Positions 5,368 to 55,615 of a stretch of 64,000 bases of DNA are shown here, piece after piece; positions within the stretch are counted from its first letter, which is position 1; each line of letters begins with the position of its first letter. The stretch lies in the sequence record PZ445527.1; one strand, written 5' to 3'. The stretch comes from a phage. A program made the position numbers and the translations under genes. The notes under the pieces were generated by a model. It was given only the letters and a program-made list of their open reading frames with translations. It made no database searches and was not told the DNA's origin.

Positions 5368-5907
5368 TTACTTGTTAAGCTCTTCTAAATCTGGTATATA
5401 TCCAAGAAACTCCTCAATTAAAGCGTACTCCCCAGCAATCTCCTGTCTAGACTTATTCGCTAAGTCTACTGCCAGAGCTAAGTCTTCATAATTGAAGGTT
5501 CCTTTCATACGTTTTCGGCCTGTTTCATCCGTAATTTGAACTCTCCATTTCTGCCTATCTTTAGCCCACATAACATTTGCATATCCAGATTTGGACTTTC
5601 TATGCTTCTTATTACGACAATTTTGTGGTTTAGATGCAGAACGTAAGTTTTTCCATCGGTTATTTTGTGGATTTCTATCTATGTGATCCACAAATTCAGG
5701 TATATATCCTTCCATATATAGGAAGGCCCATCTATGGGCTCCCTGCCTCTCCCCTTCCACCATTATCATTATGTAATCATTGTTATATAGAGTTCCAGCT
5801 TCCATTCCCCTCTTTACATACTGATTATTACCATCTATCTTCCAGGTAAATATCCCGGTTTCTGGATTATATTCTAGTAATTCTTTTAGTCTTTCTTGAG
5901 TGATCAC
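5368..5907 (-). CDS. HNH homing endonuclease (HNH plus AP2-like domain)
   Basis: AHRWAFLYMEGYIPEFVDHIDRNPQNNRWKNLR HNH motif; paralog of ORFs at 29152 and 55085. Confidence 0.8.
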   Translation of the reverse strand: MITQERLKELLEYNPETGIFTWKIDGNNQYVKRGMEAGTLYNNDYIMIMVEGERQGAHRWAFLYMEGYIPEFVDHIDRNPQNNRWKNLRSASKPQNCRNKKHRKSKSGYANVMWAKDRQKWRVQITDETGRKRMKGTFNYEDLALAVDLANKSRQEIAGEYALIEEFLGYIPDLEELNK

Positions 5908-6308
5908 AATTTATTAATGGCCTCTAAGAAGTTTTTCATGCACTTAACAGTTGCGGTGCTGAGGTCTAGAGTAGTTCCTAAACATTCTGTTAATGCTGCC
6001 TGGTAAGGCGCTTTTAAACGCCCTTCAGGGACTTCTACCTTTTTGTAGGTTTTATTCTTTACTTTATCTAGCATAGCTTCAAGAACATTGAGAGGCAACT
6101 TCGCACCCTCAATATTCACACCAAGCATTTCGGTCAGCATGTTATTAAGATCAATACGAGTAAGTTTCTTGCCTTTAGACATAGTAGTTCCTGCCTTCTT
6201 CTCAAGTTTTTTACGCTCTGGTGAATCGAGGTCACGTAATGCGATGTTCAACTCATATGGAGCCATGTTATAATGTTCCGCCATTTGAGTGTAGAAACGA
6301 TCAGACAT
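5904..6308 (-). CDS. hypothetical protein
   Basis: 134 aa ORF downstream of promoter 6341..6369. Confidence 0.55.
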   Translation of the reverse strand: MSDRFYTQMAEHYNMAPYELNIALRDLDSPERKKLEKKAGTTMSKGKKLTRIDLNNMLTEMLGVNIEGAKLPLNVLEAMLDKVKNKTYKKVEVPEGRLKAPYQAALTECLGTTLDLSTATVKCMKNFLEAINKL

Positions 6309-6340
6309 AGTATATACCTCTCTTAACTAATTTATGTATA

Positions 6341-6369
6341 TATTATATAATAACTAGGGCTAAAAGTCA
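6341..6369 (-). promoter_or_regulatory. sigma70-type promoter
   Basis: TTGACT, 17 nt spacer, TATAAT. Confidence 0.6.
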
Positions 6370-6383
6370 ACTACTTTTTTATC

Positions 6384-9816: not shown

Positions 9817-10190
9817 GCTAATCTTTCCTCGAACTCCTTACTCTGCTTTTTAGCAATTAATGTAACCAATCCAGGCTTTGCAGCTATAATATCTTGACGA
9901 CTAAGTGCTTTATCAAGCTGGGAGATCTTCTTATCAAGATCTTGTTGGGAAATATTATGGAAAGTGAAATATTGATTCATACGTGTTTCACGTTGTTCAC
10001 TTTCAACTTTAATCTTGTTTAAGGAAGTTTCTAGAGTAGAGATCTTTTTAGTAGCTACTGCAAGATCACCTGATAGAGTCTCAACCTTATTAACTAAGTG
10101 ATAAGCACCGAATCCGATGCCTATCGCTAGACCTGCTCCCAGGATATACCATTTACCTTGCCATAGAGAACTAATAAAGTTTTTTATCAT
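9747..10190 (-). CDS. TM plus coiled-coil protein (candidate i-spanin)
   Basis: N-terminal TM helix WYILGAGLAIGIGFGAY followed by coiled-coil-like region; overlaps downstream lipoprotein gene by 70 nt. Confidence 0.5.
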   Translation of the reverse strand: MIKNFISSLWQGKWYILGAGLAIGIGFGAYHLVNKVETLSGDLAVATKKISTLETSLNKIKVESEQRETRMNQYFTFHNISQQDLDKKISQLDKALSRQDIIAAKPGLVTLIAKKQSKEFEERLACLTGSVEYCSQPQSQSQAVHKK

Positions 10191-10867
10191 CTTTTCATAT
10201 TCCTGAATGACGTAACCGTATCAAATCCATGTGCTGCTAGGCGGTCTTTATCAGAAGTGGTAATAATATCTGGTTCTCCTGTTCCAAGTACACCCCAAAT
10301 ATACTGCTCGATTCTTTGGTGCAGCCGATATAGGTTAGGTTCCACACTCTGCCACGGAATACCTGATAGGTGTAGACGCGGATTAGTTATAACCTTGAAG
10401 TATTTATTGTTATCTTTATCATTTGGAACTAATGAATCTAGAACTGCTAACGGTACTCTTAACTCAGTTAAGGCTTCTTCAGCTTTGGGGGTAACTTCTT
10501 CTTGCCATGCTAAGATAGACTCTTTTGGCTTCCCCCTATTTATGTCTAGCAAAGAAAACCCTGTTGACCATCCCTTCTCCTCCAAAATTTCTAACGCCTC
10601 GTCCAAACTGAAGGTTTTTACTTGGGTATCCAGTACATCAATGTGGTATAACCAGTAAATCTCCCCAGCTAGGAAGAAAGGCAAAATTTTAAAGTAGCCA
10701 ATCTTTCCCTCAATACGAGCAATCCTACGTTCTTGCATGATCATATAGTTGTCATCATCTGGGGCTTTTATTGTTAGCTCTTCAGTTTTACGTTCCCAAA
10801 CGCGATCGGGGTCGAACAAACTGTTCTGCAAATCATACACATCTACGAATTTAGAGATGATTCTCAT
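10187..10867 (-). CDS. hypothetical protein
   Basis: 226 aa ORF downstream of promoter 10899..10927. Confidence 0.55.
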   Translation of the reverse strand: MRIISKFVDVYDLQNSLFDPDRVWERKTEELTIKAPDDDNYMIMQERRIARIEGKIGYFKILPFFLAGEIYWLYHIDVLDTQVKTFSLDEALEILEEKGWSTGFSLLDINRGKPKESILAWQEEVTPKAEEALTELRVPLAVLDSLVPNDKDNNKYFKVITNPRLHLSGIPWQSVEPNLYRLHQRIEQYIWGVLGTGEPDIITTSDKDRLAAHGFDTVTSFRNMKR

Positions 10868-11761: not shown

Positions 11762-12054
11762 TTCAGATCCTTTTCATTAATTAAAATATTTGTAAATAAT
11801 GGAGTATTTCCTAAACTCATAGTAGGTCCAAATGTTTTCATAGCTACCCATAACTGCATAGTAATCATGCCATCTTTAATTTCTGGATCTTTATACTCCT
11901 CGATACGTTTTTTAGCAAAGGCAACTACATCTGGAGTGCTGCCATTCTTTATAACATGATCATGCCAAAATTGTGCATCCTCACTACGCAGGAATGTTAA
12001 GATGTCCTTAGTTGCTGGAATCTGCACTGTGCTATTGATGTTTAGCTTTTTCAC
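11758..12054 (-). CDS. hypothetical protein
   Basis: 98 aa ORF, stop/start overlap with neighbours. Confidence 0.5.
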   Translation of the reverse strand: MKKLNINSTVQIPATKDILTFLRSEDAQFWHDHVIKNGSTPDVVAFAKKRIEEYKDPEIKDGMITMQLWVAMKTFGPTMSLGNTPLFTNILINEKDLK

Positions 12055-12451
12055 GTTCTTCTCTCCGACGTTTGCATTCTTTCATCATATGAGCTGCTAC
12101 TACTTCATGGTAGTAGTCATTAATGTTATCTTCTGGCAAGAAATGCTTAATAGTCTCTAGCTGACAAATAACTCGATGAAGATGATTATTTGGTAGACAC
12201 AATTTCATACCTGCAACAAATCCAGAGAAGCCTGGAACACTGAACATGGGTTGGGCTTCTACTCTACCTTCAGAGTTGATATTAAGCTCAATTGAGATAC
12301 CCATTTTCATGCTATAAAGCTGGCAGTATTCCCCATTACCAGATCTTGACCAAATAGTGAAGTCTTCATCAATTTGATCTTGGATTTCTGTAATTGCAAA
12401 TTTAATTCTAGGATCTAAATTATTCATCTTCACCTTCAAAGTCGCAATCAT
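12032..12451 (-). CDS. hypothetical protein
   Basis: 139 aa ORF. Confidence 0.5.
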   Translation of the reverse strand: MIATLKVKMNNLDPRIKFAITEIQDQIDEDFTIWSRSGNGEYCQLYSMKMGISIELNINSEGRVEAQPMFSVPGFSGFVAGMKLCLPNNHLHRVICQLETIKHFLPEDNINDYYHEVVAAHMMKECKRRREEREKAKHQ

Positions 12452-13931: not shown

Positions 13932-14300
13932 TTACATCGCCTGAGTAAATGTACGACTAATAACGTCGTTCTGCTGTTCACGCGTCAGTGCGTTAAAACG
14001 CACAGCATAACCAGAAACACGAATGGTTAGCTGAGGATATTTTTCAGGATGTTTCTGAGCATCCAAAAGCTGGTCACGACTTAACACATTGACATTTAGG
14101 TGTTGACCCCCTTCAATTTGAGGGGCGACTTCCACCTTGACTTCACGAAAGGATTCGGGGTCAAAGTGAGGTGTGATACCTTCTAGATCCTCAACTAGAA
14201 CTTTTTGTTTAAGTTCACCATCTTTAGAGTATAATTGAATAATCTGATTATTATGAACAATATTAATTACGCCAGATTTAAGATTTTGATATGCTTTCAT
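13932..14300 (-). CDS. grcA: autonomous glycyl radical cofactor (GrcA/YfiD-like)
   Basis: 122 aa; C-terminus [30 protein letters not shown] carries the glycyl-radical motif RVSGYAV and aligns by eye with E. coli GrcA. Confidence 0.8.
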
Positions 14301-14669
14301 TAGATCTCCCTGATGTTAGAATTTGGCTCAGCTTTTTGTTAACCCAGAAGCAAGATAAAAACTGGAAGGCAGGCTTGCTTTTCTCTTAACCACTAGGCTA
14401 CTTTTGGGTGCTAGCATTCCGGTGAGATTGATGGTCTCGGTTAAGAAGAAAAACACGGGACTTCTGTTTTAACGTCGTGCTCCCGGATTGATGCGACTAC
14501 GTGATTGCTCGCGCTAAGACAATGGCTATCTAAAGTCTTAGCTTCTACATTTATACTCCTGGATAGCATGGAGTTGCAGTCTACTTCCTGCTGTCACGCC
14601 CGGTCATTTATAGAATGTGGACTCTCTTCTCAGCAAGTTCTGGCACTATGGCCTGATCTTCTGTTTGGT

Positions 14670-14745
14670 AGTTAGTAGTGGAATCGAACCAGGTTCCACG
14701 GTTTACAAGACCGTTGCATCGCCAGCAATGCTTTAAGAGCTATCG
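14670..14745 (-). tRNA. tRNA-like element or fragment (anticodon-like loop CTTGTAA, TGT)
   Basis: T-loop GGTTCGATTCC and 3-prime ACCA present with a good anticodon stem-loop, but no pairing 5-prime acceptor strand found; abuts the 3-prime end of the HNH ORF. Confidence 0.3.
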
Positions 14746-15132
14746 TTGTCTTGTTGAAACTCTATTTCTGGCCCTATGCGTAGAGGTCATAGAGTGGCAG
14801 TTAGGGCAGAGAATCTTTAGATTTTCTGGAGAACAGTTAGTTGCATCTCCATCTATATGATCTACCTCAGTTAAAACTGCTCCGTCAATTGGATGTTTCC
14901 CATCCCAACCACATACTTCACAAGCAGTACCACGAGTATCCCACAGCCACTTCCTAACAAAAGGTTTTAATTGTGCAGCTTTACCAGTATAACCAGGTTC
15001 TTCACCTGCCAGCCACTTTAATACTTTTTGCTTTGTCTGGTACTCCTGCTGACAAGCAGGACCACAATACTTACCTGCGGAACCTCTACTTTTAGGTTTT
15101 GTGATTCCGCAATTTAAACAAGTAAACTCCAT
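14740..15132 (-). CDS. HNH endonuclease
   Basis: 130 aa; EVDHIDGDATNCSPENLKILCPNCH HNH motif plus N-terminal Cys pairs. Confidence 0.75.
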   Translation of the reverse strand: MEFTCLNCGITKPKSRGSAGKYCGPACQQEYQTKQKVLKWLAGEEPGYTGKAAQLKPFVRKWLWDTRGTACEVCGWDGKHPIDGAVLTEVDHIDGDATNCSPENLKILCPNCHSMTSTHRARNRVSTRQR

Positions 15133-15296
15133 GTTGCTTCCTATTTCAACGGGATTTCTTTTTCAATAACAAGGGCTTATCAGTCATAACTGTCATTGCC
15201 ATTTGTTGTAGAAATTCAAAGGTGAAGGCTACACGTTCTTCACCAATCTCTACTTCTACACGTTTCTTTTGTTTGTCAACCTTTAATTTTAGGCTA

Positions 15297-15518
15297 TCAG
15301 CCATCTTCGGATTCTCGTTGCTCGGCTACTGCTAGCCAGTCTGGTAAAAGAAACTTAGTACGAAACTCTTCATACGTTTCTTCTGGATAAAAGCTAAAAC
15401 CCCCTTTCTCATCATTCAAGATAACAGAGCCGTCAGTTTGTTCATATGCTCGATATGTTTCTCCAATAATGATAACTCGCTTATCAGTACTTTTATTACG
15501 AAACTCAAAAACGTGCAT
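15297..15518 (-). CDS. hypothetical protein
   Basis: 73 aa ORF within the tRNA region. Confidence 0.45.
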   Translation of the reverse strand: MHVFEFRNKSTDKRVIIIGETYRAYEQTDGSVILNDEKGGFSFYPEETYEEFRTKFLLPDWLAVAEQRESEDG

Positions 15519-15534
15519 AACGTTTCCTTAAAGT

Positions 15535-15610
15535 TGGAGCGGCTAGAGGGAATCGAACCCTACTCAGCGAGGCTTGGAAGGCCTGCGACACAACCCGTGT
15601 GCTTAACCGC
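15535..15610 (-). tRNA. tRNA-Gly (anticodon TCC)
   Basis: Manual fold: acceptor GCGGTTA/TAGCCGC, anticodon loop CTTCCAA, T-loop TTCGATT, encoded CCA. Confidence 0.7.
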
Positions 15611-15618
15611 TTATTGTT

Positions 15619-15692
15619 TGGCAGGGGATATTGGATTTGAACCAATGATCTCGACTTCAAAGGCCGTTGTGCTAACCGTTACACTACTCTCC
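15619..15692 (-). tRNA. tRNA, possibly Gln (anticodon TTG)
   Basis: T-arm ATTGG-TTCAAAT-CCAAT, anticodon loop CTTTGAA, encoded CCA; acceptor stem pairs imperfectly so boundaries and isotype are uncertain. Confidence 0.45.
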
Positions 15693-15784
15693 AATTGTTT
15701 GGCTGGAGTGCCTGATTCAATCCCAGGCACCTTCGGAGTCAGAGGCCGACGACTTGACAATTGATCTACACCTCAAGAATACTA

Positions 15785-16021
15785 TTAACTAGATGCTGGT
15801 TCTGCTGGCTGAGATACAGCAGGCTGTTCTAATGTATCTGGTGCTGATACAGAGAAAAGAGCTTGTAATGCTGCAATATCACGCTCGTAAGTTTCAATAC
15901 GAGTAGTAAGAGTATCTACCATCTGTTTATGATAGGCTAAGTTATTCTGAGATTCATCTCGAAGGGTTTGCAGTTCTGCAAGACGTGTTAACATAATTTC
16001 ACTAATTAAAGCATTACTCAT
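15785..16021 (-). CDS. hypothetical protein
   Basis: 78 aa ORF, helical heptad-like character. Confidence 0.45.
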   Translation of the reverse strand: MSNALISEIMLTRLAELQTLRDESQNNLAYHKQMVDTLTTRIETYERDIAALQALFSVSAPDTLEQPAVSQPAEPASS

Positions 16022-16211: not shown

Positions 16212-16236
16212 ATTTTATTTCCTATTTAAGTTAATT

Positions 16237-16610: not shown

Positions 16611-16679
16611 CTAGGAGTGGATGTTCCTAGTAAACCTATTCGGCAGTCCCGTCTACCAATTCCGGCATATTCCAAGATT

Positions 16680-23798: not shown

Positions 23799-24620
23799 TT
23801 AAAATAGATCATATTCTAATCTATTGGGATTTTCTCGGTATCCATAAGACGTAAGAGTACCCCTCATATACTCTGCGTCAACAGGATTAGATGTTACTAG
23901 AACCACTTTTAGTGGTCTTTGACCTAAAAATAGTATATGATCTAATAAGTCTTTTCCTTGTACCTCTGGATCTCCTAAATCTGAGTCCATAAATAAATAG
24001 GATCCTGTGAAACTAAATATATCTGATAGTTCCAGCGCACCTATAACTGTACGACAAATAATGGACATTTCAGGTAGATCTCTAACATCGTCTATTAGAA
24101 TATTGGTCTGCTTCCCAATTTCTGCATTACATAAACCATTTACTAGTTTTTCTCTTTCCCCTTTAGCTTGTTCGAAAGTGGTGAAGCCAGGAGATACGAA
24201 AAACTTTCCACCTAATGTAATGCTATACACAAAACCCTCTGGGAGTAGTTCTACACCTACGGTTTTATTAGTATTAATCCTATTTAACTTAAAATTTGTC
24301 TCTCTTAGATTAATAATTCTGTTATCCCACGGTATAGTATTTATATGGTCGATCATATAAGGCGGCTCTTCACCATAATGGAGCAACCACGCTATTCGGT
24401 GTCCATAAATAATTGTGGGTTTATTATCTAAGAGCAAACTAACTCTGATGTACCCATCAGAGTTCTTACTACATATTTCTCTCCCAGCATATAGGGTGTG
24501 CCAAGTTTTATTCTTGTATTTATTAGGCTTATAAAATAATTTACCGGTATAAGGATTATACTCTATAATTTCTCGAATATAATCTATATATGGTAGTATT
24601 TGTTTTTGTAATTTACCCAT
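23799..24620 (-). CDS. HNH homing endonuclease (HNH_3-like)
   Basis: 273 aa; GHRIAWLLHYGEEPPYMIDHINTIPWDNRIINLR; own promoter at 24651..24679. Confidence 0.7.
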   Translation of the reverse strand: MGKLQKQILPYIDYIREIIEYNPYTGKLFYKPNKYKNKTWHTLYAGREICSKNSDGYIRVSLLLDNKPTIIYGHRIAWLLHYGEEPPYMIDHINTIPWDNRIINLRETNFKLNRINTNKTVGVELLPEGFVYSITLGGKFFVSPGFTTFEQAKGEREKLVNGLCNAEIGKQTNILIDDVRDLPEMSIICRTVIGALELSDIFSFTGSYLFMDSDLGDPEVQGKDLLDHILFLGQRPLKVVLVTSNPVDAEYMRGTLTSYGYRENPNRLEYDLF

Positions 24621-28678: not shown

Positions 28679-29155
28679 TCACATCTCGGCAAGTTCTTGC
28701 TCAGTAATAACAGTATTACATAATGCGTCAACTTCTTCATTACCTCTAATACCTGAGTGCCCTTTAACCTTAATAAAGGTAGGGTTAGTATTATGAAAAT
28801 TAATATACTGTTGGGTTAGTTTAAATGCTTCTTGCCATAGTTCTAAATTGAGAGGAGCTTCACCATCTCCCTTCTTCCAGCCTTTCTTCTGCCAAGACCA
28901 CATCCAGCTTTCCATACCATTTTTACAGTATGCAGAATCAGTGTAGATTATAACTGGACGTTTATCATTCTTAGTAGCCCAGCGCAGAACTTCAACAATA
29001 GCTGTAAGTTCCATTTCATTGTTTGTGGTTTTTGGACTGAAACCCGACTTAGAACCCAAACGTTCGTCATTAGGATCATAAACTACGAAACCCCAAGCAC
29101 CTAAACCAGGATTACCTTTACAAGCCCCATCTGTATATATATGAAATGTACTCAT
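28679..29155 (-). CDS. rnhA: ribonuclease H
   Basis: 158 aa; IYTDGAC...EMELTAI...YTDSAY...HSG...EVD typical RNase HI catalytic motifs. Confidence 0.85.
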   Translation of the reverse strand: MSTFHIYTDGACKGNPGLGAWGFVVYDPNDERLGSKSGFSPKTTNNEMELTAIVEVLRWATKNDKRPVIIYTDSAYCKNGMESWMWSWQKKGWKKGDGEAPLNLELWQEAFKLTQQYINFHNTNPTFIKVKGHSGIRGNEEVDALCNTVITEQELAEM

Positions 29156-29694
29156 TTATTAAGTTCCTCTAAAATAGGGGGTGGTTTTGTGGAATCAAAA
29201 GTTTCTATAACAGCGTTTTTACCGTGTAACTGTAGACGAAGTTCATTGGCACATTGAATGGCGGATTCTAGGTCTTTGTACTCAAAATAACCACCATATA
29301 CTGACTTTTTATCGGAGTCTCTAACATGTACTTGCCATTTCTGATTTTGCCTATTCCAGCTAATTCCTAGATAACCAGATTTACTTCTAGTGGTTTTATT
29401 TCTCTGATTCTCTTGGTAATTAGATTTCCTGAGATTAATCCATCTATTATCATCTCGTATGCGGTTTATGTGGTCTACCATTTCCGGTAGATAGCCTTCC
29501 ATATAGAGAAATGCTAGCTGATGCGCATAATATGGATTTTTATCCACGGATATAGTTATATATCCGTCTTTTCTTAGATGACCAGCAATACTTCCTATTT
29601 TTCCGTTTCTACCCCTGACTCCCGTCCTTCTAGTAAATATTCCGGTATCGGGGTTATAATCGAATAGTTCTTTTAATCTTTCTTGTGTGATCAT
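29152..29694 (-). CDS. HNH homing endonuclease (HNH plus AP2-like)
   Basis: 180 aa; N-terminus MITQERLKELFDYNPDTGIFT shared with ORFs at 5368 and 55085. Confidence 0.8.
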   Translation of the reverse strand: MITQERLKELFDYNPDTGIFTRRTGVRGRNGKIGSIAGHLRKDGYITISVDKNPYYAHQLAFLYMEGYLPEMVDHINRIRDDNRWINLRKSNYQENQRNKTTRSKSGYLGISWNRQNQKWQVHVRDSDKKSVYGGYFEYKDLESAIQCANELRLQLHGKNAVIETFDSTKPPPILEELNK

Positions 29695-30074
29695 TCATCT
29701 AACCATCCTATGTCTATACTAAGTAATGCTTTTATTCCTGTAATACCTGTACCATAGGTATTATATCGAATAGCACTTCTGCTCTTTACTTCAAGTATAT
29801 TTTCATACTCTGTATTTTCTAGAATTTCTGTAGATATACCTAAATATCCTGATTGATCTTCCTCGTCCCAACCCATATCTTCTAGAAGATTTAGACGTAA
29901 TTCTACCTTCTCATCTCCATTGCCTACAGAGTAGTAGTCTTCTAAAGTCCTGAATTTAGAAGTGATAGAGTCTAGTATTAATAATATCTGTTCCTTAGTA
30001 ATAGTTTCTTTATCACCCTGTAAGTAATTGGAGTAATTCAGAAGGGCTTGTTCTAATTCAATTTCTTTACTCAT
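29691..30074 (-). CDS. hypothetical acidic protein
   Basis: 127 aa ORF. Confidence 0.5.
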   Translation of the reverse strand: MSKEIELEQALLNYSNYLQGDKETITKEQILLILDSITSKFRTLEDYYSVGNGDEKVELRLNLLEDMGWDEEDQSGYLGISTEILENTEYENILEVKSRSAIRYNTYGTGITGIKALLSIDIGWLDE

Positions 30075-32755: not shown

Positions 32756-33262
32756 TTATAAACTATCAAGCTCCAATAGTTTAGCATCACGCCATTCTAT
32801 AGCATCCTCTAATTCTTTAAATGTTTTTGTATATTTTACGCCTTTACGAGCTATCTGGACTTGATATGATCCACTAGCTTTTTGATGAATATTTTTAATA
32901 CCTAGCTTATTGTCTTTATGCGCCCCGACATTCTTTCCGTTACTGAATCTATCAGAAGCTACTAGGTTAATAGCTCTATTATCATGTCGTATTCTATTAT
33001 CGTGGTCTACTTCAGGTGGCAGATACCCATGAATTTTAGCAAAGATTACCCTATGGGCTAAGTAGGGGTATCCTTTAATATTTAATACTATATATCCTGT
33101 AGATTTATCTAAGGAGCCTGCTGGTTTTCCGGCATATTTGGTATTAAATGTTTTATTATCTCTAGGTCTATGAGTCAATATTCCAGTATATGGATCATAA
33201 TCAAATAATTTAGCTACCTCTAGATGATCTTCTAATGTTTTTGACATAATTATAATTTCCAA
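32756..33262 (-). CDS. HNH homing endonuclease
   Basis: 168 aa; AHRVIFAKIHGYLPPEVDHDNRIRHDNRAINL; sits between nrdA and nrdB. Confidence 0.75.
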   Translation of the reverse strand: MEIIIMSKTLEDHLEVAKLFDYDPYTGILTHRPRDNKTFNTKYAGKPAGSLDKSTGYIVLNIKGYPYLAHRVIFAKIHGYLPPEVDHDNRIRHDNRAINLVASDRFSNGKNVGAHKDNKLGIKNIHQKASGSYQVQIARKGVKYTKTFKELEDAIEWRDAKLLELDSL

Positions 33263-33311: not shown

Positions 33312-36300
33312 TTATAAGGTGCAGCCACCTGAAGAACATCCTGTAGTTTCTCCAGCTCCTCCACCATTCGCAGTGTTAAAGTTAGCATAATACCAGGTTT
33401 TTATACCATACTTAACCGCAGTCATAAAGTCACGAACTACTACTGGGCCAGGGATGATTTCATTCTCGAATTTAGAGTAATCATAATACATCTGGAAACT
33501 TGATGACTGACTCAAGAATTTTTGGTAAACGGCGTTCCACTTGATCCACTCAATACGATCTACATCATAGGCCAGTTTATAGCTCATGAGAGTATCCCAA
33601 TCAGTTGCACCTGGGGCAATTGCAATTACTTTATTCACTGCACTACCCTTGATAGATACAATCTTACGAGGTGGTTCAATAGAGTTAGTAACGCCTAACA
33701 GAACAGAGGAACTTTCTCCCGGCATCTGCGCAGTCAGAACAGAGTTACGCATACCGTATTTCAGAATGTCTGCACGCAGAGATTCCCAATCCATTTCTAG
33801 ACCTACGGATACCAGCTCATCAACAGTTTTCTTATACGTGTCGATTACCAGAATTCCTTTGGATGGTTTAGTACGATTAAACCATTCACATGCACCTTGT
33901 TCTTTAGCCAGACGTACAGAGGCTTTATGTAGGAAGTAAGACAGTTTTTCAGCTTCACGATGAATCCAGTTACGTGCTTCAACGCCTTCATAAGCCAAAC
34001 CTTCCGCCGCCATTGCACCTGCTGCGTTCATCAGACCAATACCAACATTACGACGTTTCTTAGCCGTATATTCCATAGTTGGGAACGGATAATCCTGAAT
34101 TTCAATGATGGTATCAACGAATTTCAGGAGGATGTAGCAAGTTTTCTCCCACTCAGCCAGAGATTCCATGCGTCCTAGTACAACACCACCTAAGTTACAC
34201 AGAGATACTTCACCAATATCCTCTGGCTTCATTTGATCAAGCTGCTCTTTTGTCTTATACAGCTCTGTGATATGATGGAACGGGCGTGTAGGCTGAGTAA
34301 TTTCTACACAGTTACCCGCTAAAATGCCATTAAATACACCTAAGTTTAATTTAGGTTCTGTAAAGCAATAAGTATCACTAATACGACCAGTAAACTCAAC
34401 GTTAGTTACAGTTACAAAACGGGTTGCGTCTCTATTGGGGCGTGTTAGGTTTAAGAGTTTCTCTTTATCCAAAGAGAGTCCTAAATCTTTAAGTTTCCAG
34501 AAGCCACTACTCCCCACAATAAGCCTACTAGTCTCCTTGCAGTGGTATAGTTTACTAGTACCAGTACCATCTGGTAACTCGTGGTCACCTTCTTTGCGTC
34601 CTAAAATAATCTTGCTAGTAACCCCCAATTCTAGTAACAAATCCTTCACTTTACTTAGAAAATCAGGCTCTGCCGAAGCAACCACAATACTAGGAGTTGT
34701 GCCATTTTTCTGTATGCAGCCATCTGCATCTAAATATCCCTCTAACCATTTGATACGGCTATCAATAGTATACTCTGGGCCAGGTACAAAATACTTCGGC
34801 ATTAAATCAGACTTAACAATATAGCTCAGTCTACCTGTGCTGTCCAGTAATCCACTTCCCTGAATTTCTGCGTCAATTTTATCCACTAATGGTAGTTTGC
34901 CACCTTTTTCATAGAAGTACAGCTTAGGTTCTCCATGTCTTCCATAAGTTCCATCTCCAGTGAAGAAACCGTTAGTATAAGGAGATTTTAGTACCATATT
35001 TCCATGATCTACAATAGGATTACTAAATTTAGGCATTTTCATACCTACTTGCAAGTCTACTGCTCGTACCTCTTCTAGCCCCTGTTTGAAAGAGGTACGA
35101 CGATCCTCTCTGACATATTTGGGCTGGTGGTAGAACTTATGATAAAGAGTAGATTCAATAGTAGATCCATCAGAGAATGTGATTTTTATCAACTCCTGAG
35201 CTTCCCCAGTTTTAGTAGGGATAACTGTTGACCATTCTTGTCCGTTCCAAATCTCTACTTCTTTACCAACTAAATCAATAATCTCTATGTTACCATTTTT
35301 GGTTAAAATTTTTGTTTCTGGAGCTACACAAAGGTTTGTCATACGGATTGGATCAAGGAAGTTACCGTGACGATTAGATTCCCCGATGTGGTGCGCATAC
35401 ATACGTCCTGTTTCCATTCGGATACGTAGCCAAGTATCTAGGATTTCTTTTGCAGAGACTTTAGGAGCTGCTGGAACTGTTTTTCCTTCGTGGTCGATCT
35501 TTGTAAGAGATGCCACACGTTTCTCCGCTGCCACGTAGATTTCTTCAAATTTAGCCTCGTCATCACTATAAAACGCTTCATGAACTTCTGGAGCATAGAA
35601 GTATGACATTAGCGTAATATCTTCATTTTTCAGATAACGTTTTAACAAAAGATTGTTGAAGCTCAGAGAATAATCCATCTTATCAATTTTATTCTCGTCT
35701 GTAGCACGTTGTTGCTTAACCTGCATCAACTGAATGATTTCAGGGTCAAAGTATGGATAAGACACTGTAGCAGAACCACCACGAGTTTGCTGAGTATTGG
35801 CCTTTACTGAGCGATCAATGTGTCGATAATATGGCAGTTTTCCGGAATGCGGGAATGCCCCATTTCGCACCGGATCAGCAATTGATCTGCTTTCAAGATG
35901 ATACCCGATTCCCGCTCTGGCTGCAACCATTTTGAAGACGATGTGCTCGGCGGTGTCGATTGAATCCAACGTGTCAGTGGAATCCACGAGGCAGCAACTA
36001 GCAAATCCACGGTCACTAGAGCGCAGACCAACCAGTGGCGGCGTAGGAACGTTGATTTTGTGGAGCGACATTGCGTTGTAGAGGTCGATTGCATCTAGAA
36101 TTGTCCAGTTAGGTTGAGATAACATCGCCATTGCCATACCCATGTAGGCAAACTGCGGAGTTTCATAAATTTCACCAGTGGCTATGTTGCGGCGGGAATA
36201 CTTATCAAAGAACTGCTTCAGTCCACCACTAGTAAAAAGACGGTCACGATCATGGTCGATAACCTGATTCAGAGCTTCAAATTGCTCATCGGTAATCCAT

Positions 36301-38081: not shown

Positions 38082-38747
38082 ATGGTAAGAAAGAAAATAA
38101 CTACAGAAGATGTGAACTTAGCACTTGCTCCCAGAGGAATAATTATGCTAAGCACGTATATATCAGCTAAATCCAATGCTATATTTAAGTGCTCTAATGG
38201 GCATAGTTGGGAGGCTAGAGTAGATAATGTAAAAGGTGGGAGAGGTTGCCCTTATTGTGCTAGTCGTACTTTAGATCTTAAAGAGGTAAATGAATCCTTA
38301 GCTGCTCGTGGAATAAAGATGGAAGGTAAATACATCAATTCTAAGAGTAAAATTATGTTCAGCTGTGAGAATGATCATAGGTGGGAGTCTACCCTTGATA
38401 GTGTTAGAAATCATAATTCTGGTTGTCCTATATGTTTATTAGAGAAGGATAATTATCCTACTAACGTATATATTTTAGTAAGTAGTATGGGAACCAAAAT
38501 AGGGATGTCTAGCAGAACTAAAGATAGACTCAGAGATATTAAAACTTCTTCTAACATACATGATTTAAAAATATTTAAGGAATATAGCTTTTCAGATAGA
38601 TCAAAAGCTGTGCGTATTGAAAGAGAAGCCCATTTACAGTTTAAGGAATATAATTGTCAGTACAAAGATTTTGATGGTGCTACAGAATTTTTTAGTATTG
38701 AGCCAGAAGTAGTAGCAAGGTTTATTGAGGAAATAATTAATGAATAA
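38082..38747 (+). CDS. zinc-ribbon plus T5orf172/GIY-YIG-like nuclease-domain protein (putative homing endonuclease)
   Basis: 221 aa; two CxxGHxW...CPxC zinc-ribbon repeats and C-terminal region VYILVSS...RLRDIKTS...REAHLQFKEY resembling the T5orf172 domain. Confidence 0.55.
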   Translation: MVRKKITTEDVNLALAPRGIIMLSTYISAKSNAIFKCSNGHSWEARVDNVKGGRGCPYCASRTLDLKEVNESLAARGIKMEGKYINSKSKIMFSCENDHRWESTLDSVRNHNSGCPICLLEKDNYPTNVYILVSSMGTKIGMSSRTKDRLRDIKTSSNIHDLKIFKEYSFSDRSKAVRIEREAHLQFKEYNCQYKDFDGATEFFSIEPEVVARFIEEIINE

Positions 38748-47185: not shown

Positions 47186-47402
47186 AAAATGGGAAACAAG
47201 GAAGCTTCCAGTAAAAGAACGTAAAGTTCCTGTTTATGATACTTCGGAAAAGCTATGTAGGGTGGTTCCTGCTAGACTAGCTGGCATCCCTAACATATCC
47301 GAGTGGTTACTTAAACAACGGAGGACTAACGTATCTCTTCGCATAGGGTTTGAGTTAGATAAAGTATATGCTGAACTTTCTTCTTTGCTCAAGGAACAAT
47401 AA
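47169..47402 (+). CDS. small basic protein
   Basis: ORF 47160..47402 fills the gap between the large protein and the HNH gene; ATG at 47169 after AGGTG. Confidence 0.35.
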   Translation: MTVKNKKWETRKLPVKERKVPVYDTSEKLCRVVPARLAGIPNISEWLLKQRRTNVSLRIGFELDKVYAELSSLLKEQ

Positions 47403-47974
47403 TGTTTATAAGAATTCCTAAATTTCCTGACTATGCAGTGAATGAAAATGGAGAGGTGTATTCTTTTCTCTCCTACAAGTTTCTTACTCCAGGTCAAAAT
47501 ACTGCTGGGTACTTACAAGTTAATTTAATGAAGGACGGTCCCCCTATAAATATGAGGGTGCATAGGTTAGTAGCCTATTGTTTTGGACTACTTCCTGGGT
47601 TAGAATCAGAATTGGTAGTAGACCATATAAATGATGATAAGTTAGATCCTAGACTATCTAACTTGCAGGTATTAACCTACAGAGCTAATGCAATAAAATT
47701 TCATAATAAAAATTGGAGAGAACATCCAGATTTCCTAGTAGAAATTAAGAAATTAGAAAGTATGGGCATAACTAAAGCAGCTGCATCCTATAGGCGCAAG
47801 GCTATGCTTAAATACATTGTGGCTGTTCCCTCTAGTGATACTCTAACCTTAGAATTAATAGAATCTACATATCAGAAAACCAATTCTTGGAGAAAAACTG
47901 CTAGAGTGCTTGGATTTAAAAGCGCCCCAGCTATTCTTTATAGATATAACAAGCTGAAAGCAGCTTCTTTATAA
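47402..47974 (+). CDS. HNH homing endonuclease
   Basis: 190 aa; HRLVAYCFGLLPGLESELVVDHINDDKLDPRLSNLQ HNH motif. Confidence 0.7.
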   Translation: MFIRIPKFPDYAVNENGEVYSFLSYKFLTPGQNTAGYLQVNLMKDGPPINMRVHRLVAYCFGLLPGLESELVVDHINDDKLDPRLSNLQVLTYRANAIKFHNKNWREHPDFLVEIKKLESMGITKAAASYRRKAMLKYIVAVPSSDTLTLELIESTYQKTNSWRKTARVLGFKSAPAILYRYNKLKAASL

Positions 47975-50239: not shown

Positions 50240-51211
50240 ATGACTAATGTAAAAGAATTTATTAAACGCTGTCAAGAAGCATATTATCAAGGCATGTCTT
50301 TAATCTCTGATGAAGAATATGATCGTCTGGTAAAACGCTTCCCGTTAGAGGAAGAGATCGGGCCTAAGGGTGATATTCCACACCTATATCGTATGTATTC
50401 TTTACAGAAAGTTTATTATAATCGTGGGGATAAACCACCATTCAATCCTTTAGGTCAGGTGGAAACCGATAAGTTAGATGGTTGTGCAATTTCTCTGCTA
50501 TATATTAACGGTGAATTTGTTCAAGCATTAACCCGTGGTAACGGTATTCTGGGGAATGATGTCACAAGCAACGTAAGATTGCTGAACATCCCTAAAAAGA
50601 TTTCCCAAAAAGTACCTACCCAAATCACTGGTGAAGTTCTAATTACAAAGGAAGTAGAAAATAAACGTAACTTTGCCTCTGGTGCTATTAACCTCAAAGA
50701 TAGCAATGATTTTGTACAACGCATTGGAGAAGGCGGTTTAATTTTTGTTGCTTATGGTATCCAATGTTCTGCTGAATCTGTAGGTATTACAGAAGCATAC
50801 TTAAAAGATATGCTTTGGCTAGAGAATGAGAACTTCTTAACAGTTGTTAATGTACGTTCCTTCTTTAAATGGATTCCAACCGACGGTAAAGTTGTTCGTA
50901 TTAATGATAATAATAAATTCTTCCGCGAAGGGTGGACTAATAAATTCCCTCGTGGAGCATTCGCTATTAAAGAGGATGAAGAAGGCGAGATTACAACTCT
51001 TACTAAAGTTGAATGGGCGACAGGAGCGTCTGGTAAAGTAACTCCAGTTGGTTATTTCGAACCGGTAATTATTGATGATGCAGTTATTACAAAAGCCACC
51101 CTTAATAATGTAGATTATATTAAATCACTAGATTTAGAGATCGGATGTCAGATTAGAGTAGTACGTGCAGGCGGTGTGATACCAAAGATTGTGGAAAGAG
51201 TTTATGAATAG
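50240..51211 (+). CDS. ligA: NAD-dependent DNA ligase, N-terminal part (adenylation and OB domains)
   Basis: 323 aa; adenylation motif KLDGCAISL; ends where bacterial LigA continues into its Zn finger. Confidence 0.85.
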   Translation: MTNVKEFIKRCQEAYYQGMSLISDEEYDRLVKRFPLEEEIGPKGDIPHLYRMYSLQKVYYNRGDKPPFNPLGQVETDKLDGCAISLLYINGEFVQALTRGNGILGNDVTSNVRLLNIPKKISQKVPTQITGEVLITKEVENKRNFASGAINLKDSNDFVQRIGEGGLIFVAYGIQCSAESVGITEAYLKDMLWLENENFLTVVNVRSFFKWIPTDGKVVRINDNNKFFREGWTNKFPRGAFAIKEDEEGEITTLTKVEWATGASGKVTPVGYFEPVIIDDAVITKATLNNVDYIKSLDLEIGCQIRVVRAGGVIPKIVERVYE

Positions 51212-51845
51212 CGGAGTTTATCCACTGATAGTAAAAGGATATAAATATGTTGGCTATTCCAGAAATATTGATAGAAGGTTTAAGGAGCATACATATACTT
51301 ATGTTACTAATCTAGGTCATATAGACTCCCATATCCCGAGAAACTTACTAGGTGTACAGGTACAGAAGTCAGATATAAGCATAGAAATTCTAGAGTATAT
51401 TTCTCCGGAAGAGAGTACTGATGTATTTTTAAGGGCAGAAGATTTGTGGATACAGAGGATTTGTCCAGAGCTAAATACAAACGTTCCTTTATCTAACTTA
51501 GTCGAAGCAGTAGAATATTGTATTTCAAACCCATCTGAAACGTATAAATCAGCGGCCTCAAAGTTCAACATTACACCTAAAATGTTAGAGCATGTTGCCT
51601 CTGGAGGATATAACTCCTTAGGATGCATTTTATCAAGAAGTACTTTAGAACTATTTCGTAGTAAGAAATATAAAGAACTAATATTAGTACACGAAAATGG
51701 GGCTAGGTTTGTAGCGACGTCTTACCTTGAATTACATAGATTATCTGGGCTAGATAGGCATAGAATATCTGACCTACATAAAGGCAAGTACCCCACCTTT
51801 AAAGGGTGGACCCTTTTAACCCCATCTACCATATCGGAATTATAA
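51204..51845 (+). CDS. GIY-YIG homing endonuclease
   Basis: ORF 51189..51845; GVYPLIVKGYKYVGYSRNIDRRFKEH GIY-YIG motif; start at MNSG Met overlapping ligA end. Confidence 0.75.
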   Translation: MNSGVYPLIVKGYKYVGYSRNIDRRFKEHTYTYVTNLGHIDSHIPRNLLGVQVQKSDISIEILEYISPEESTDVFLRAEDLWIQRICPELNTNVPLSNLVEAVEYCISNPSETYKSAASKFNITPKMLEHVASGGYNSLGCILSRSTLELFRSKKYKELILVHENGARFVATSYLELHRLSGLDRHRISDLHKGKYPTFKGWTLLTPSTISEL

Positions 51846-52773: not shown

Positions 52774-53533
52774 ACTGAACTGGAACGTAGAAGGTGTAAC
52801 CGAGTCTCTGAAAGCAAAAGCCACTGCTCTGGGTGTTGCTGTAATCTCTCAAGAACAAGTAGCTGCTATCGCTGCTGAACTGGCCGCTGAAACTGGTAAA
52901 GATGTTACCGCTCGCTCTGTTGGCTCTAAACTGCGTAAAGAAGGTTTTGAAGTACAAAAAGCTAACGAAGTACAGAAATCCCCGTGGACTCCTGAGCAGG
53001 AAGCTGAACTGGTTGATTTCCTGAACGCTCATGCTGGTCAGTATACCTATGCTGAAATCGCTGCTGCTGTAGCTGGTGGTCAGTTCGGTGCTAAGCAGGT
53101 ACAGGGTAAGATTCTGAGTCTGGAAATGACCGCTTCTGTTAAACCAACCGAAAAAGCTGCTGCTGTTCGTTCCTTCACTCCGGATGAAGAAACTGATTTT
53201 GTTAATCAGGTTGTTGCTGGTGCTACTATTGAAGCTATCGCTGCTCACTTCGGTCGTAATATCAAGCAGATCCGTGGTAAAGCTCTGAGCCTGCTTCGTG
53301 AAGGTCGTATCGCTGCTATGCCGGTACAGGAAACCTCAAGTGCTAAAACTCGTGAAGATCTGTTAGAAGGTCTGGATCTGGTTAACATGACTGTTGCTGA
53401 GATCGCTGAGAAAACTGGTAAGTCTGAGCGTGGTGTTAAATCTATGCTGTCTCGTCGTGGTCTGGTTGCTAAGGACTATGATGGTGCCGCTAAGCGTGCT
53501 AAACTGGATGCAAAAGCTGCGGCTGCTGAATAA
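52766..53533 (+). CDS. abundant DNA-binding protein (T5 D5-like), tentative
   Basis: 255 aa, Ala-rich; three internal repeats of a short HTH-like motif; strongly biased codon use. Confidence 0.55.
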   Translation: MSKLNWNVEGVTESLKAKATALGVAVISQEQVAAIAAELAAETGKDVTARSVGSKLRKEGFEVQKANEVQKSPWTPEQEAELVDFLNAHAGQYTYAEIAAAVAGGQFGAKQVQGKILSLEMTASVKPTEKAAAVRSFTPDEETDFVNQVVAGATIEAIAAHFGRNIKQIRGKALSLLREGRIAAMPVQETSSAKTREDLLEGLDLVNMTVAEIAEKTGKSERGVKSMLSRRGLVAKDYDGAAKRAKLDAKAAAAE

Positions 53534-53615
53534 TCTGGTAAATTAAACCTAAGGGGTGGGGGCTATGCCTCTACCCCTTTTTGCATTTAGAAGGCACGAA
53601 AGCGTGCAAAGGAGA

Positions 53616-55088
53616 ATGACCTTGTTTAACGTGCAAGCTGTAGTGTTGAAGATGCTTCTAGCTTCCGAACAGAAGCAAATAGCATTGGAAACATTCTCAA
53701 AACTGCATAAAGATCATTTTAATGACGCTTTCTCCTCAATTTACCAAGCCGTCCAGAATTATTATAAAAAATATAACGCAATGCCGTCCATTGACGCACT
53801 TATGCTTGAGGCCAATAGGAACGCCCGCCTTTCTCAAGCTCTAGTCGTCTTAGCTAACACTCAAATTCCAGAAGTTAGCATGGAACAGGCACTTGAAGTC
53901 CTAGAGGCCGAGTATACACAGGATTTATTCCTGAAGCTTCTAGAAACAGACGTGCTTCAAGATTTAACAATGCTGGATCAGGGAGAAATTCTTAACCGAG
54001 TTGCCTCCCTTCACTTAAAATTAGAAGAGAAAGTAACGAATACTGGAAAAGTATTCAACGCAGATAACATGCGTATTTTCCAGAGAGAAGAAGATACCAA
54101 ACTGAACTTAATCGCTCTTGGTATTTGTAATGAGTTCGACGCTCAAATTGGTTTAGCTCGCACAGAAACGTTACTGCTTGGTGGTTGGCGTGGTACTGGT
54201 AAATCCATTATCTGTTCAAACATACAGGTTCAGCAATATTTGAATGGAGATATTGCTCCATACTTCTCAATTGAGATGAAAGAACATGAAGTATTTAGAC
54301 GTAATCTAGCCATGTTAGCTGGTGTATCAGCACTAGCAATGCGTAATAATACTCTAGAAGGCGCAGCTCTGTTGAGATTAGCCAGAACTAGAGCTAGGAT
54401 GTTTAATGGTGGTGAAGAGCTTTTCGATAACTTCGTTAAACAGTACACAATGGCTAAGATGAGTGATTTCTACGATATGGAAAGTAAGCTAATAGAAGGA
54501 TATGAGCTACATACTCCTATGATTATTGTTTATGATCCTGAGCTGTCTATTACAACAGTTGACGTAGAATTAAATAAATTAGTTGCTAGATATGGGGATA
54601 AAGTTACAGTAGCTTTACTGGACTATATTAACCAAACCCGACTTCCAGACTCTAAAACCATTGATATGTATGACTGGAAAGAACAGATGGTTGTTAGCTC
54701 GTCTTTCAAATCTATCTGCCAGAAACATAACGTGGCTGGTGTAGCCCCTTACCAGATTGATCAAGATGGTAGAACACGTATGTCAAAGGGGATTCTTGAT
54801 TCCGCAGACATGGCTGCTAATCTTAATGCTGCAAAAGCTGATAATGGTCAAGGTGCTATTATGTTTGACTTCGTTAAGACTCGTTCTTCTGATAGCGTGA
54901 AGTTTATGCCTAAAATGAACTGGGAAACCCTACGGATGGATAACACTACCAACCTAGCAATGGAAGATATATCTCAAATGGAAGCTGAGTTCGTTATCCC
55001 TATTGAGAAGGATAAGCCGGCTCAATCTAAACGTGCTAAGAAAGACAAAGCTGAAAATTCAACAGGTGAACAGGCCAGCGATATATGA
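53616..55088 (+). CDS. DnaB-like replicative helicase
   Basis: ORF 53556..55088; start at MTLFNVQ Met 4 nt after AAGGAG; Walker A GWRGTGKS. Confidence 0.8.
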   Translation: MTLFNVQAVVLKMLLASEQKQIALETFSKLHKDHFNDAFSSIYQAVQNYYKKYNAMPSIDALMLEANRNARLSQALVVLANTQIPEVSMEQALEVLEAEYTQDLFLKLLETDVLQDLTMLDQGEILNRVASLHLKLEEKVTNTGKVFNADNMRIFQREEDTKLNLIALGICNEFDAQIGLARTETLLLGGWRGTGKSIICSNIQVQQYLNGDIAPYFSIEMKEHEVFRRNLAMLAGVSALAMRNNTLEGAALLRLARTRARMFNGGEELFDNFVKQYTMAKMSDFYDMESKLIEGYELHTPMIIVYDPELSITTVDVELNKLVARYGDKVTVALLDYINQTRLPDSKTIDMYDWKEQMVVSSSFKSICQKHNVAGVAPYQIDQDGRTRMSKGILDSADMAANLNAAKADNGQGAIMFDFVKTRSSDSVKFMPKMNWETLRMDNTTNLAMEDISQMEAEFVIPIEKDKPAQSKRAKKDKAENSTGEQASDI

Positions 55089-55615
55089 TAACACAGGAAC
55101 GACTAAAAGAACTGTTTGACTACTCCCCAGAGACTGGGGAGTTTACTAGAAAAGTATCTAGAGGCAATCAGAAAGCTGGTAGTATTGCGGGTACTCTAGA
55201 TAGTGGATACATACGGATAAGGGTAGATAGAAAATTATACTTTGCACACCAACTAGCCTTCCTATACATGGAAGGATATATGCCAGAGGAAGTAGACCAT
55301 ATTAATCGAATTACTTGGGATAATAGATGGATTAATATTAGGCCATCCACCCGGCAAGAAAATAGCAGAAATAAAACAGCTAGAAGTAAATCTGGATACT
55401 TGGGAGTTTTCTGGTTTAAGCGGGATCACAAATGGCATGTAAGAGTAGTAAATTCTATGGGAGAAAAAGTTCACGGTGGGCTCTTTAATTACGCAGATCT
55501 AAAGCTTGCAGTCACTAAAGCCAATGAACTACGTCTACAATTACATGGAGAAAATGCTGTTCAAGAGATCTTTGATCCAACTAAGTATCCTTCACTGGAG
55601 GAGTTAAATTCATGA
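55085..55615 (+). CDS. HNH homing endonuclease (HNH plus AP2-like)
   Basis: 176 aa; N-terminus MITQERLKELFDYSPETGEFT, paralog of ORFs at 5368 and 29152. Confidence 0.8.
   Translation: MITQERLKELFDYSPETGEFTRKVSRGNQKAGSIAGTLDSGYIRIRVDRKLYFAHQLAFLYMEGYMPEEVDHINRITWDNRWINIRPSTRQENSRNKTARSKSGYLGVFWFKRDHKWHVRVVNSMGEKVHGGLFNYADLKLAVTKANELRLQLHGENAVQEIFDPTKYPSLEELNS

Follow-up and report, generated by a model that had tools for sequence, protein, structure and literature searches.

How a single stretch of phage DNA comes to hold ten genes or gene segments of the homing-endonuclease type, and whether these are independent mobile elements, copies of one another or enzymes that work for the phage, is the question raised by sequence record PZ445527.1, of which 64,000 nucleotides (nt; hereafter the window) were analysed. 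A preliminary description, made from the letters alone, had located the ten between positions 5,368 and 55,615, had called their density unusually high and had interpreted three of them as products of a recent duplication. Our analysis indicates that the window covers the early/replication region of a T5-like phage, and that it very probably carries ten independent selfish homing elements, namely nine free-standing endonuclease genes and one intein.

The assignment to a T5-like phage (Demerecviridae; Tequintavirus/Epseptimavirus-like) follows sequence similarity and gene content. When the window was submitted to megablast as three overlapping pieces of 24-25 kb, about 570-610 phage records matched, the closest genomes being those of T5, BF23, FFH1, SSP1, Shivani and SP3 at 92-96% nt identity, none of them identical. 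The genes are those of the T5 early region, i.e. the tRNA block, nrdA/nrdB/nrdD, thymidylate synthase, the split NAD-dependent ligase, the D6 helicase, primase, a family-A polymerase and the D10 helicase.

A blastn comparison of the window with T5 yields collinear blocks, and the gaps between these blocks coincide with the elements (5356-5910, 14310-15141, 23928-24617, 29147-30100, 32715-33311, 34311-35325, 37949-38754, 47403-47972 and 51184-51809). The preliminary description had proposed to compare the insertion sites with those of endonuclease-free relatives. We did so for 27-29 T5-like genomes from IMG/VR, sampled as loci of ±10 kb around three conserved anchor genes, taking the distance between the flanks of each element in a relative as the measure of occupancy, and this revealed clean presence/absence at exact sites. 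The sites are empty in most relatives, and in some a different nuclease gene occupies the position. When the HNH genes of the relatives were mapped on the window coordinates, more than 25 distinct insertion sites appeared, with unrelated alleles sharing sites. The alleles of the window recur in different relatives: SP3 shares the intein and the GIY-YIG gene, SHSML-45 the HNH genes at 5368 and 23799, a contig of 111,325 bp the HNH gene at 29152 and the T5orf172 gene at 38082, and phage H8 the HNH genes at 23799 and 32756. Since each allele is thus held in common with a different relative, the pattern fits independent horizontal gain. Each allele that was compared with public sequences has a counterpart there that is 89-99% identical (87-96% for the gene at 47402).

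The sequences that adjoin the elements carry a further possible sign of homing. On one side of the elements at 5368, 29152 and 32756, 200-400 bp are 96-99.5% identical to the carriers of the element, as compared to a median of 76-87% for genomes with an empty site; in the case of 32756 the adjoining 200 bp of nrdA reach 99.5% identity with carriers, the median elsewhere being 81%. Over all ten elements, the adjacent 200-bp bins are more diverged than the background (median identity 91.4% versus 94.0%; one-sided Mann-Whitney p=0.024). Such flanks would be expected from co-conversion or from divergence of the target. In addition, the ratio of non-synonymous to synonymous substitution (dN/dS) relative to the nearest counterparts lies between 0.0 and 0.22 for every element, which implies that the proteins are maintained by purifying selection. 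Several points weigh against a history of homing, however. The co-conversion signal is one-sided and was absent for the intein, the T5orf172 gene and the HNH genes at 47402 and 55085, the overall flank test is only modestly significant, and presence/absence alone does not separate gain by homing from repeated loss. That the ten alleles home is suggested by their distribution and their homology.

The inventory itself, seven HNH genes, one GIY-YIG gene, one T5orf172 gene and one LAGLIDADG intein, was borne out in full by Pfam, and domain searches, which the preliminary description had named as the means to refute it, instead upheld the nuclease domains (Pfam, PHROG and a family profile). All seven HNH proteins match Pfam HNH_3 or HNH above the cutoff, HNH_3 being found in those encoded at 5368-5907(-), 23799-24620(-), 29152-29694(-), 32756-33262(-), 47402-47974(+) and 55085-55615(+), and in all seven the catalytic D-H...N columns are invariant (D74, H75 and N87 in the numbering of the 5368 protein). 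The PHROG families agree with Pfam for the HNH and T5orf172 genes. A hidden Markov model (HMM) built from the HNH proteins of the window and T5 detected no extra HNH genes or remnants among 924 stop-to-stop open reading frames (ORFs) of at least 30 amino acids (aa), and phmmer found no further GIY-YIG or T5orf172 copies in the window. Since the HNH model recovered the seven genes, neither more nor fewer, and no pieces of others, the number of ten is right and nothing is missing from it. The elements add up to about 5.9 kb, which is 9.3% of the window.

Ten more ORFs, mostly in or near segments absent from T5, were considered as homing nucleases that might have been missed (among them 12032-12451, 27872-28321, 29691-30074 and 10187-10867); according to Pfam none encodes a homing-type nuclease, one being a NADAR and one a DUF7022 protein. 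The 139-aa ORF at 12032-12451(-), which lacks a Pfam match, lies at the exact position of T5 hegE (F-TflV), as a non-nuclease replacement. Intron-encoded nucleases were considered as well. A scan of the whole window at the Rfam gathering threshold returned tRNAs only, hence no introns, and the nine nuclease genes are all intergenic or fused at a gene start; it follows that the ten comprise nine free-standing elements and an intein. The earlier remark on the neighbourhood proved right too, as seven of the ten lie beside or inside genes for nucleotide metabolism or replication (rnh/thy, nrdB/nrdA, nrdA, nrdD, origin-binding protein/D2, ligA/ligB and D6 helicase/primase).

Genes that are intact and under purifying selection could in principle serve the phage, and some or all of the HNH genes might be working phage enzymes such as the T5 DNA nickase, a nuclease that degrades host DNA or a packaging-associated HNH protein. 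The low dN/dS would suit such a role, as would the HNH_3 family, which includes the nicking enzyme I-HmuI. T5-like genomes moreover contain specific nicks at GCGC-containing sites (an annotation; PMC10644984), although the same BF23 paper holds nothing on the identity of the T5 nickase. Yet most close relatives, all of which have the T5 lifestyle, lack any given one of the seven HNH genes; in six of 33 sampled related contigs (for two of which all three loci were fully covered) the sampled part is devoid of HNH genes, and Stitch is without any homing endonuclease (PMC4319617). Furthermore, no HNH gene in the window adjoins a terminase gene, and different nucleases replace each other at the same site, as competing selfish elements would, so that a role as phage enzymes is very unlikely. 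Somewhat less improbable, but still unlikely, is that the elements are inactive relics that no longer cut. The classical homing cycle predicts degeneration after fixation, and this is what speaks for relics. Against them stand the integrity of all ORFs and their catalytic residues, the low dN/dS and the lack of degraded copies in the window; besides, the elements have by no means reached fixation, and at such a stage one expects selection for activity.

Two more specific alternatives concern the origin of three HNH genes and the nature of a fourth. ORFs 5368, 29152 and 55085 indeed start alike (M/V-ITQERLKEL), as had been described, and their C-termini (LEELN) are alike as well, from which a recent duplication within the genome would seem a natural conclusion. 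The N-terminal identity is confined to the first ~10 residues, though, and overall the proteins are only 48-66% identical with synonymous sites saturated. The alignment at the DNA level that the preliminary description had suggested gives a proportion of synonymous differences (pS) of 0.78-0.89, and even within codons 2-20 pS is 0.59-0.96, as compared to a proportion of non-synonymous differences (pN) of 0.07-0.14; high pS with low pN means that the N-terminus is kept by selection on the protein. For every one of the three, another phage holds a counterpart of 95-99% identity at the corresponding site, and ~30 distinct family members, spread over six or more sites of other T5-like phages and including T5 hegE and hegJ, have the same termini (M[IL]TQERLKEL...LEELN[KS]). 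It follows that the three genes represent separate site-specific lineages, and recent duplication can practically be dismissed. Instead, they appear to be old, separately acquired lineages of one HNH-AP2 family, with one site each. The other alternative is that the nuclease part of the gene at 23799 is an intein, which would splice out to release a cREC protein. The insertion into the host gene is exact and in frame, the frame is preserved in a variant that is 76% identical, the host part lacks an internal start, and the insert ends in Gln171|Thr172, a terminal Gln with a +1 Thr being known in a few inteins; the counterpart in phage SelmaRatti is in fact labelled 'intein'. The insert follows directly after Met1, however, and begins with Gly2-Lys3, i.e. 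without a Cys, Ser or Ala nucleophile. Free-standing HNH-AP2 nucleases can be aligned over the full length of its residues 11-163 (phrog_99, E=1e-34), which leaves no room for a Hint splicing domain of ~130 residues, and no intein or Hint profile matched. The N-terminal nucleophile and the Hint fold that characterise inteins are thus both missing, the evidence on the fold coming from the insert only, and we regard an intein at this site as highly improbable. The sequence reads more readily as a nuclease gene that captured the start codon of its host gene, self-excision being unlikely.

Within the HNH-AP2 family, the gene at 5368..5907 (-) lies between a thioredoxin-like gene (T5.037 homologue) and the T5.038 homologue (HNH_3 E=1e-13; phrog_99 E=2e-57), and its element consists of 555 bp in place of 1 bp in T5. 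Among 28 relatives, two have the same allele (97-99% nt identity), six have a different insert of ~500-535 bp and 20 are empty; dN/dS of the protein is 0-0.06. The gene at 29152..29694 (-) is found between rnh (RNase H) and thymidylate synthase (HNH_3 E=1e-11, with a weak AP2 match at E=0.1), its stop codon overlapping the rnh start (ATGA). It lies in the segment 29147-30100, which T5 lacks and which also contains an ORF of 127 aa at 29691..30074 (-) with no assigned function (phrog_26840 E=1e-81, no Pfam match). One relative has a matching allele (95% aa, 96% nt), five have an allele with 63% aa and 79% nt identity and 11 have shorter gaps; as the gaps at this site come in several sizes (67, 232, 312, 553 or ~955 bp), the segment is modular. 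The third gene, at 55085..55615 (+), occupies the T5 hegJ site between D6 helicase and primase (HNH_3 E=3e-12) and encodes a protein with 66% aa identity to T5 HegJ. Among 30 relatives, 21 are empty, nine have the hegJ type and none has the same allele, while copies that are 99.4% identical are present at the same site in T5_ev219 and Tennessee. The element has ATGA at both ends, where the empty site has a single ATGA stop/start overlap (...gatat[ATGA]gtag...).

The AlphaFold2 (AF2) model of the 29152 protein (mean predicted local confidence, pLDDT, 83) consists of an N-terminal helix on a ββα-metal core (pLDDT 84-92), with a three-stranded sheet and a long helix after it. For this C-terminal domain the top three Foldseek matches in the Protein Data Bank (PDB) are plant AP2/ERF domains (probability 0.99-1.0; TM-score 0.71 to 1gcc). 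By this architecture the MITQERLKEL family belongs to the HNH-AP2 class, with a separate AP2-like DNA-binding module. The link between AP2 and HNH was reportedly first noted by Magnani et al. 2004. Members of the family start on the stop codon of the upstream gene (ATGA), and in the genes at 29152 and 55085 the 3' end reads GAGGA(N)xATGA, i.e. a Shine-Dalgarno-like sequence followed by the codon at which the downstream gene, rnh or primase, starts. Such an end would preserve translational coupling after insertion. The third copy, 5368, ends with TAA, and 7 nt further on begins the next gene, with a Shine-Dalgarno sequence of its own. The termini were also considered as recombination signals at the DNA level and rejected as such, since the synonymous sites there vary freely; the constraint on the 3' end concerns the protein and probably also the ribosome-binding site.

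The fusion gene at 23799..24620 (-) joins an HNH(-AP2-like) nuclease (codons 2-171, ~nt 24108-24617; HNH_3 E=2e-11) to a cREC domain (cREC_REC E=2e-12). Residues 173-271 are 51% identical to T5.084, a cREC_REC protein of 105 aa, and in the ATG and the 40 nt upstream of it there is no difference from T5.084, the ~170 nuclease codons following in frame after Met1; no plausible internal start was found for the cREC part. At the T5.084 site, 24 of 27 relatives have the standalone 311-bp gene only, two the same fusion and one another insert. Of 441 matching phage records, 29 contain the fusion, which forms only two clusters among 5.8 billion proteins (word-indexed search), one of them being the 76% identical variant at the same locus, and the frame kept in this variant means that the in-frame state has been maintained over time. 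In the AF2 model of the fusion the cREC half is poor (pLDDT 35-60), and the insert has the element order of HNH-AP2 nucleases. The SelmaRatti entry (MZ501103.1, bas34_0072; L117) labels residues 3-171 of the 23799 homologue 'intein', in keeping with the procedure of the BASEL authors, who called inteins from comparative in-frame insertions (PMC8594841); for this HNH insertion in a T5.084 homologue the label is a probable misannotation. A far-reaching interpretation is that the gene represents an undescribed mode of existence for a homing endonuclease gene (HEG), which settles behind a host start codon and borrows promoter, ribosome-binding site and ATG, or, bolder still, that the nuclease is removed after translation by a non-Hint route; we consider this a long shot. 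If removal did occur, the 'intein' label would be functionally right in spite of a protein that lacks every hallmark of an intein. In a tamer version, the 273-aa fusion may be the working form of both proteins.

NrdA contains a canonical intein. It is of class 1 and the LAGLIDADG type, comprises 340 aa (nt 34311..35330, -) inside nrdA (33312-36764) and is inserted at MTNL|CVEI. With it NrdA is 1150 aa long, and alignment with T5 NrdA reveals an exact in-frame insertion of 340 aa with zero loss. The insert displays the sequence features of class-1 inteins: Cys1, a TLYH block B, GFFTGDG and GYLDADG, i.e. two LAGLIDADG motifs of the single-chain endonuclease type, and a terminal ...AGN followed by Cys+1 (LAGLIDADG_3 E=8e-14; TIGR01445 intein N-terminal region, 35.2 bits against a cutoff of 24.5). 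It sits just before the cysteine of the NxCxE motif of NrdA, which serves as Cys+1 and which we take to be the catalytic cysteine of class I ribonucleotide reductase (RNR). The penultimate residue is Gly, not the usual His, which makes efficient splicing less certain; a penultimate His is common in inteins but not defining. Given the intact motifs and the essential +1 Cys, NrdA is probably restored by protein splicing. Of 27 relatives one has the intein and 26 are empty, and among 50,697 records it occurs (98% nt identity) in four distinct phages, SP3, Kenya-K36, Kenya-K42 and SelmaRatti, the last of which labels it as an intein.

The T5orf172 gene at 38082..38747 (+) lies directly upstream of nrdD and overlaps its start. 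It combines the nuclease with two treble-clef/CapR-type zinc-finger modules (DUF4379 E=4e-14 over two stretches, CapR E=1.5e-8, T5orf172 E=1e-10, MUG113 E=2e-11; phrog_681 endonuclease E=7e-49), which is the architecture of T5orf172-type HEGs, i.e. a nuclease plus zinc-finger repeats. Compared to T5, the element has taken the place of the nrdD promoter region and of the first ~14 codons of the gene. Among 27 relatives, 18 sites are empty, eight hold T5orf172 genes whose zinc-finger modules number two or three, and one holds an HNH gene; the same allele was found in one relative. Another difference in nrdD, at 39891-40033, was considered as a mobile insert and rejected, being a T5-specific in-frame deletion of 150 nt (50 codons), for which 18 relatives match the window.

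The GIY-YIG gene (51189/51204..51845, +; I-TevI/Seg-like) occupies the spacer between ligA and ligB, the two parts of the split NAD-dependent ligase. Taken alone, the protein matches Pfam GIY-YIG at the cutoff (22.6 bits) and falls below the TIGR01453 cutoff, but it contains the motifs GVY-x8-YVG, R, H, E and N, of which G4, Y6, Y15, G17, R25, H29 and E79 are invariant in an alignment of eight sequences. Searches of solved structures with single proteins (the 29152 HNH protein, the GIY-YIG protein and the intein) returned nothing significant, and only the GIY-YIG family profile matched: it hits the catalytic domain of I-TevI (1mk0, E=5.5e-19) and, with positions 124-198, the C-terminal DNA-binding region of I-HmuI (1u3e, E=5e-5). 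Pfam GIY-YIG is found in all eight family members (best E=1e-13) and an I-HmuI_NUMOD-like domain in three of the eight, so that the protein has both the catalytic motif and the C-terminal DNA-binding region of a GIY-YIG HEG. The lineage is rare, with eight relatives among 1.84 billion representative proteins in an exhaustive HMMER search (one cluster by word search) and, among 29 related genomes, one carrier (SP3, 89%) and 28 empty sites. As ligA and ligB are split in all element-free relatives, the element is not what currently keeps the ligase split. The SP3 counterpart is named 'NAD-dependent DNA ligase subunit A' by NCBI and UniRef, an annotation that was probably carried over from the neighbouring ligA.

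Three HNH genes lie outside these groups. The one at 32756..33262 (-), between nrdB and nrdA (HNH_3 E=8e-9; phrog_99 E=1e-47), occupies the same intergenic site as T5 hegH, with which it is non-orthologous (35% aa identity to HegH). Here, 15 of 27 relatives are empty, eight have the hegH type or another insert, two the same allele (93-95% nt) and two an allele that is 80% identical. The gene at 47402..47974 (+), between the T5.110 homologue and D2 (HNH_3 E=5.5e-8; phrog_59 E=3e-27), encodes a NUMOD4-like N-terminus (Pfam NUMOD4 E=0.0015, below cutoff), and the element consists of 570 bp in place of 1 bp in T5. Twenty-six of 29 relatives are empty at this site and three have a different insert of 454 bp; none has the same allele, and homologues with 87-96% identity are labelled 'putative homing endonuclease' in DaisyDussoix, SuperGirl and others. 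The gene at 14740..15132 (-), in the tRNA region, combines a zinc ribbon with a classical HNH domain (HNH E=3e-5 and HNH_3 E=1.6e-5, both just above the cutoff; phrog_1271 E=6e-18). It falls within the T5-absent segment 14310-15141, its protein is 41.5% identical to part of T5 HegA, and a 99% identical copy exists in one relative (L094, 120,120 bp).

Some observations were made in passing. The region 14300-22600 contains 12 tRNA genes according to ARAGORN, as compared to ~24 in T5, is ~4 kb shorter than its T5 equivalent and lacks T5 hegA, C and D; a weak tRNA-like Rfam match (22479-22550(-), 35.5 bits) has no ARAGORN call. The tRNA-Asp at 17941-18017(-) has the anticodon AUC where T5 has GUC (G34->A) and a C6·A67 mismatch in the acceptor stem, and could be a decaying or re-specified tRNA. 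The NADAR-domain protein (149 aa, 27872-28321(-), Pfam E=6e-22) is encoded inside a 490-bp segment that is absent from T5 (gap 27874-28363). NADAR proteins reverse ADP-ribosylation, and the gene may have an anti-defence function. Finally, two records of 4.5-5.3 kb entitled 'Listeria phage LM 4-11-1 / 4-14-1' (OR847212.1 and OR848534.1) are 97% identical to this T5-like region and are probably mislabelled or contaminant fragments.

By analogy with the characterised T4 Seg/Mob and T5 F-Tfl enzymes, the ten elements would spread as follows. During coinfection with a relative that lacks the element, the nuclease would recognise a long target in a conserved neighbouring host gene by means of its AP2-like, NUMOD-like, zinc-finger or LAGLIDADG DNA-binding surface and cut or nick it, after which recombinational repair on the element-carrying template would copy the nuclease gene along with some hundred bases on its flanks. 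On this view the preference for conserved genes of replication and nucleotide metabolism as neighbours would arise because no relative is without these sequences. The design of the cassettes spares the phage from harm, and their positions coincide exactly with gene junctions.

Whether the density is unusual depends on the yardstick. Compared to phages in general the qualification made earlier holds, but within the T5 group it does not: in T5 itself, eight heg genes are annotated for the same region (hegA, C, D, E, F, H, I and J), and in the homologous region of 27 relatives the number of HNH genes ranges from 0 to 14 (median ~2), with five genomes having seven or more and phage H8 at least 14, these counts being lower bounds because the sampled loci leave a gap of ~2 kb in the tRNA region. 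The density of the window is in the upper range of the group and not exceptional. The crowding of homing endonucleases in T5 relatives is an already known phenomenon. T5 has 9 in its genome and Stitch none (PMC4319617), and it is mainly through the genes for these enzymes that T5-like genomes differ from one another (PMC10644984). T5-like phages abound in HEGs of the T5orf172 type with repeated zinc-finger modules (Barth et al. 2023, PMC10448857), these and the HNH-AP2 HEGs cluster by RNR and replisome genes, with HEGs at recombination boundaries (PMC10448857), and such elements frequently target RNR genes (PMC3045599, PMC4760082). The window is, in other words, a textbook case of a mosaicism that already has names in T5 (hegA-J) and has been the subject of a large-scale analysis by Barth et al. 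2023. What it adds is a worked example over ~29 genomes of competition for sites between unrelated nucleases and of cassettes that preserve translational coupling, together with two probable database misannotations (the SP3 GIY-YIG gene as a ligase subunit and the HNH insertion in the T5.084 homologue as an intein). The in-frame fusion with a captured host start codon is a small testable curiosity, and the only item worth a small follow-up.

The closest known system is formed by the heg genes of T5, which belong to the same phage group and genome region. F-TflI/II/IV are given as site-specific (Akulenko 2004, as cited in PMC10644984 and PMC2330249), whereas F-TflV, F-TflVI, P-TflVIII and P-TflX are putative. 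Three sites are common to the window and T5, namely nrdB/nrdA (hegH), D6/primase (hegJ) and the position beside the origin-binding protein gene, near hegI, and T5 HegE and HegJ are members of the MITQERLKEL family, with 49-66% identity to the window copies. On the other hand, the best aa match of any window nuclease to T5 is 66%, the window lacks hegA, C, D, E and F, and T5 is listed as lacking the insertions at 5368 and 29152, the intein and the T5orf172 and GIY-YIG genes. The T5orf172 gene resembles the HEGs described by Barth et al. 2023 in its C-terminal nuclease, its N-terminal tandem treble-clef zinc fingers (two to three modules) and its place beside an RNR gene, but differs in that it overlaps and rewrites the 5' end of nrdD. 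Like T4 Seg/Mob and I-TevI, the protein encoded at 51204 has a GIY-YIG catalytic domain, and its gene is free-standing, between the halves of a host gene function; the mechanism expected for Seg/Mob is a double-strand break followed by co-conversion of the flanks (PMC2330249). Unlike them, it belongs to a very rare lineage, in the ligA/ligB spacer. The NrdA insert shares with class-1 LAGLIDADG RNR inteins Cys1, TxxH, two LAGLIDADG motifs, a terminal Asn and a Cys+1 in NxCxE, a likeness at the level of motifs, and deviates from them in its penultimate Gly instead of His and its rarity in T5-like phages. Finally, the MITQERLKEL family can be likened to the HNH-AP2 'IPA-HNH' HEGs of ICP1 (PMC10448857) in architecture: both have an HNH_3 core followed by an AP2-type sheet and helix, and both are free-standing, beside essential genes and variably present, while the family of the T5 group has its own ITQERLKEL N-terminal helix and a LEELN C-terminus whose coding sequence appears to double as a ribosome-binding site.

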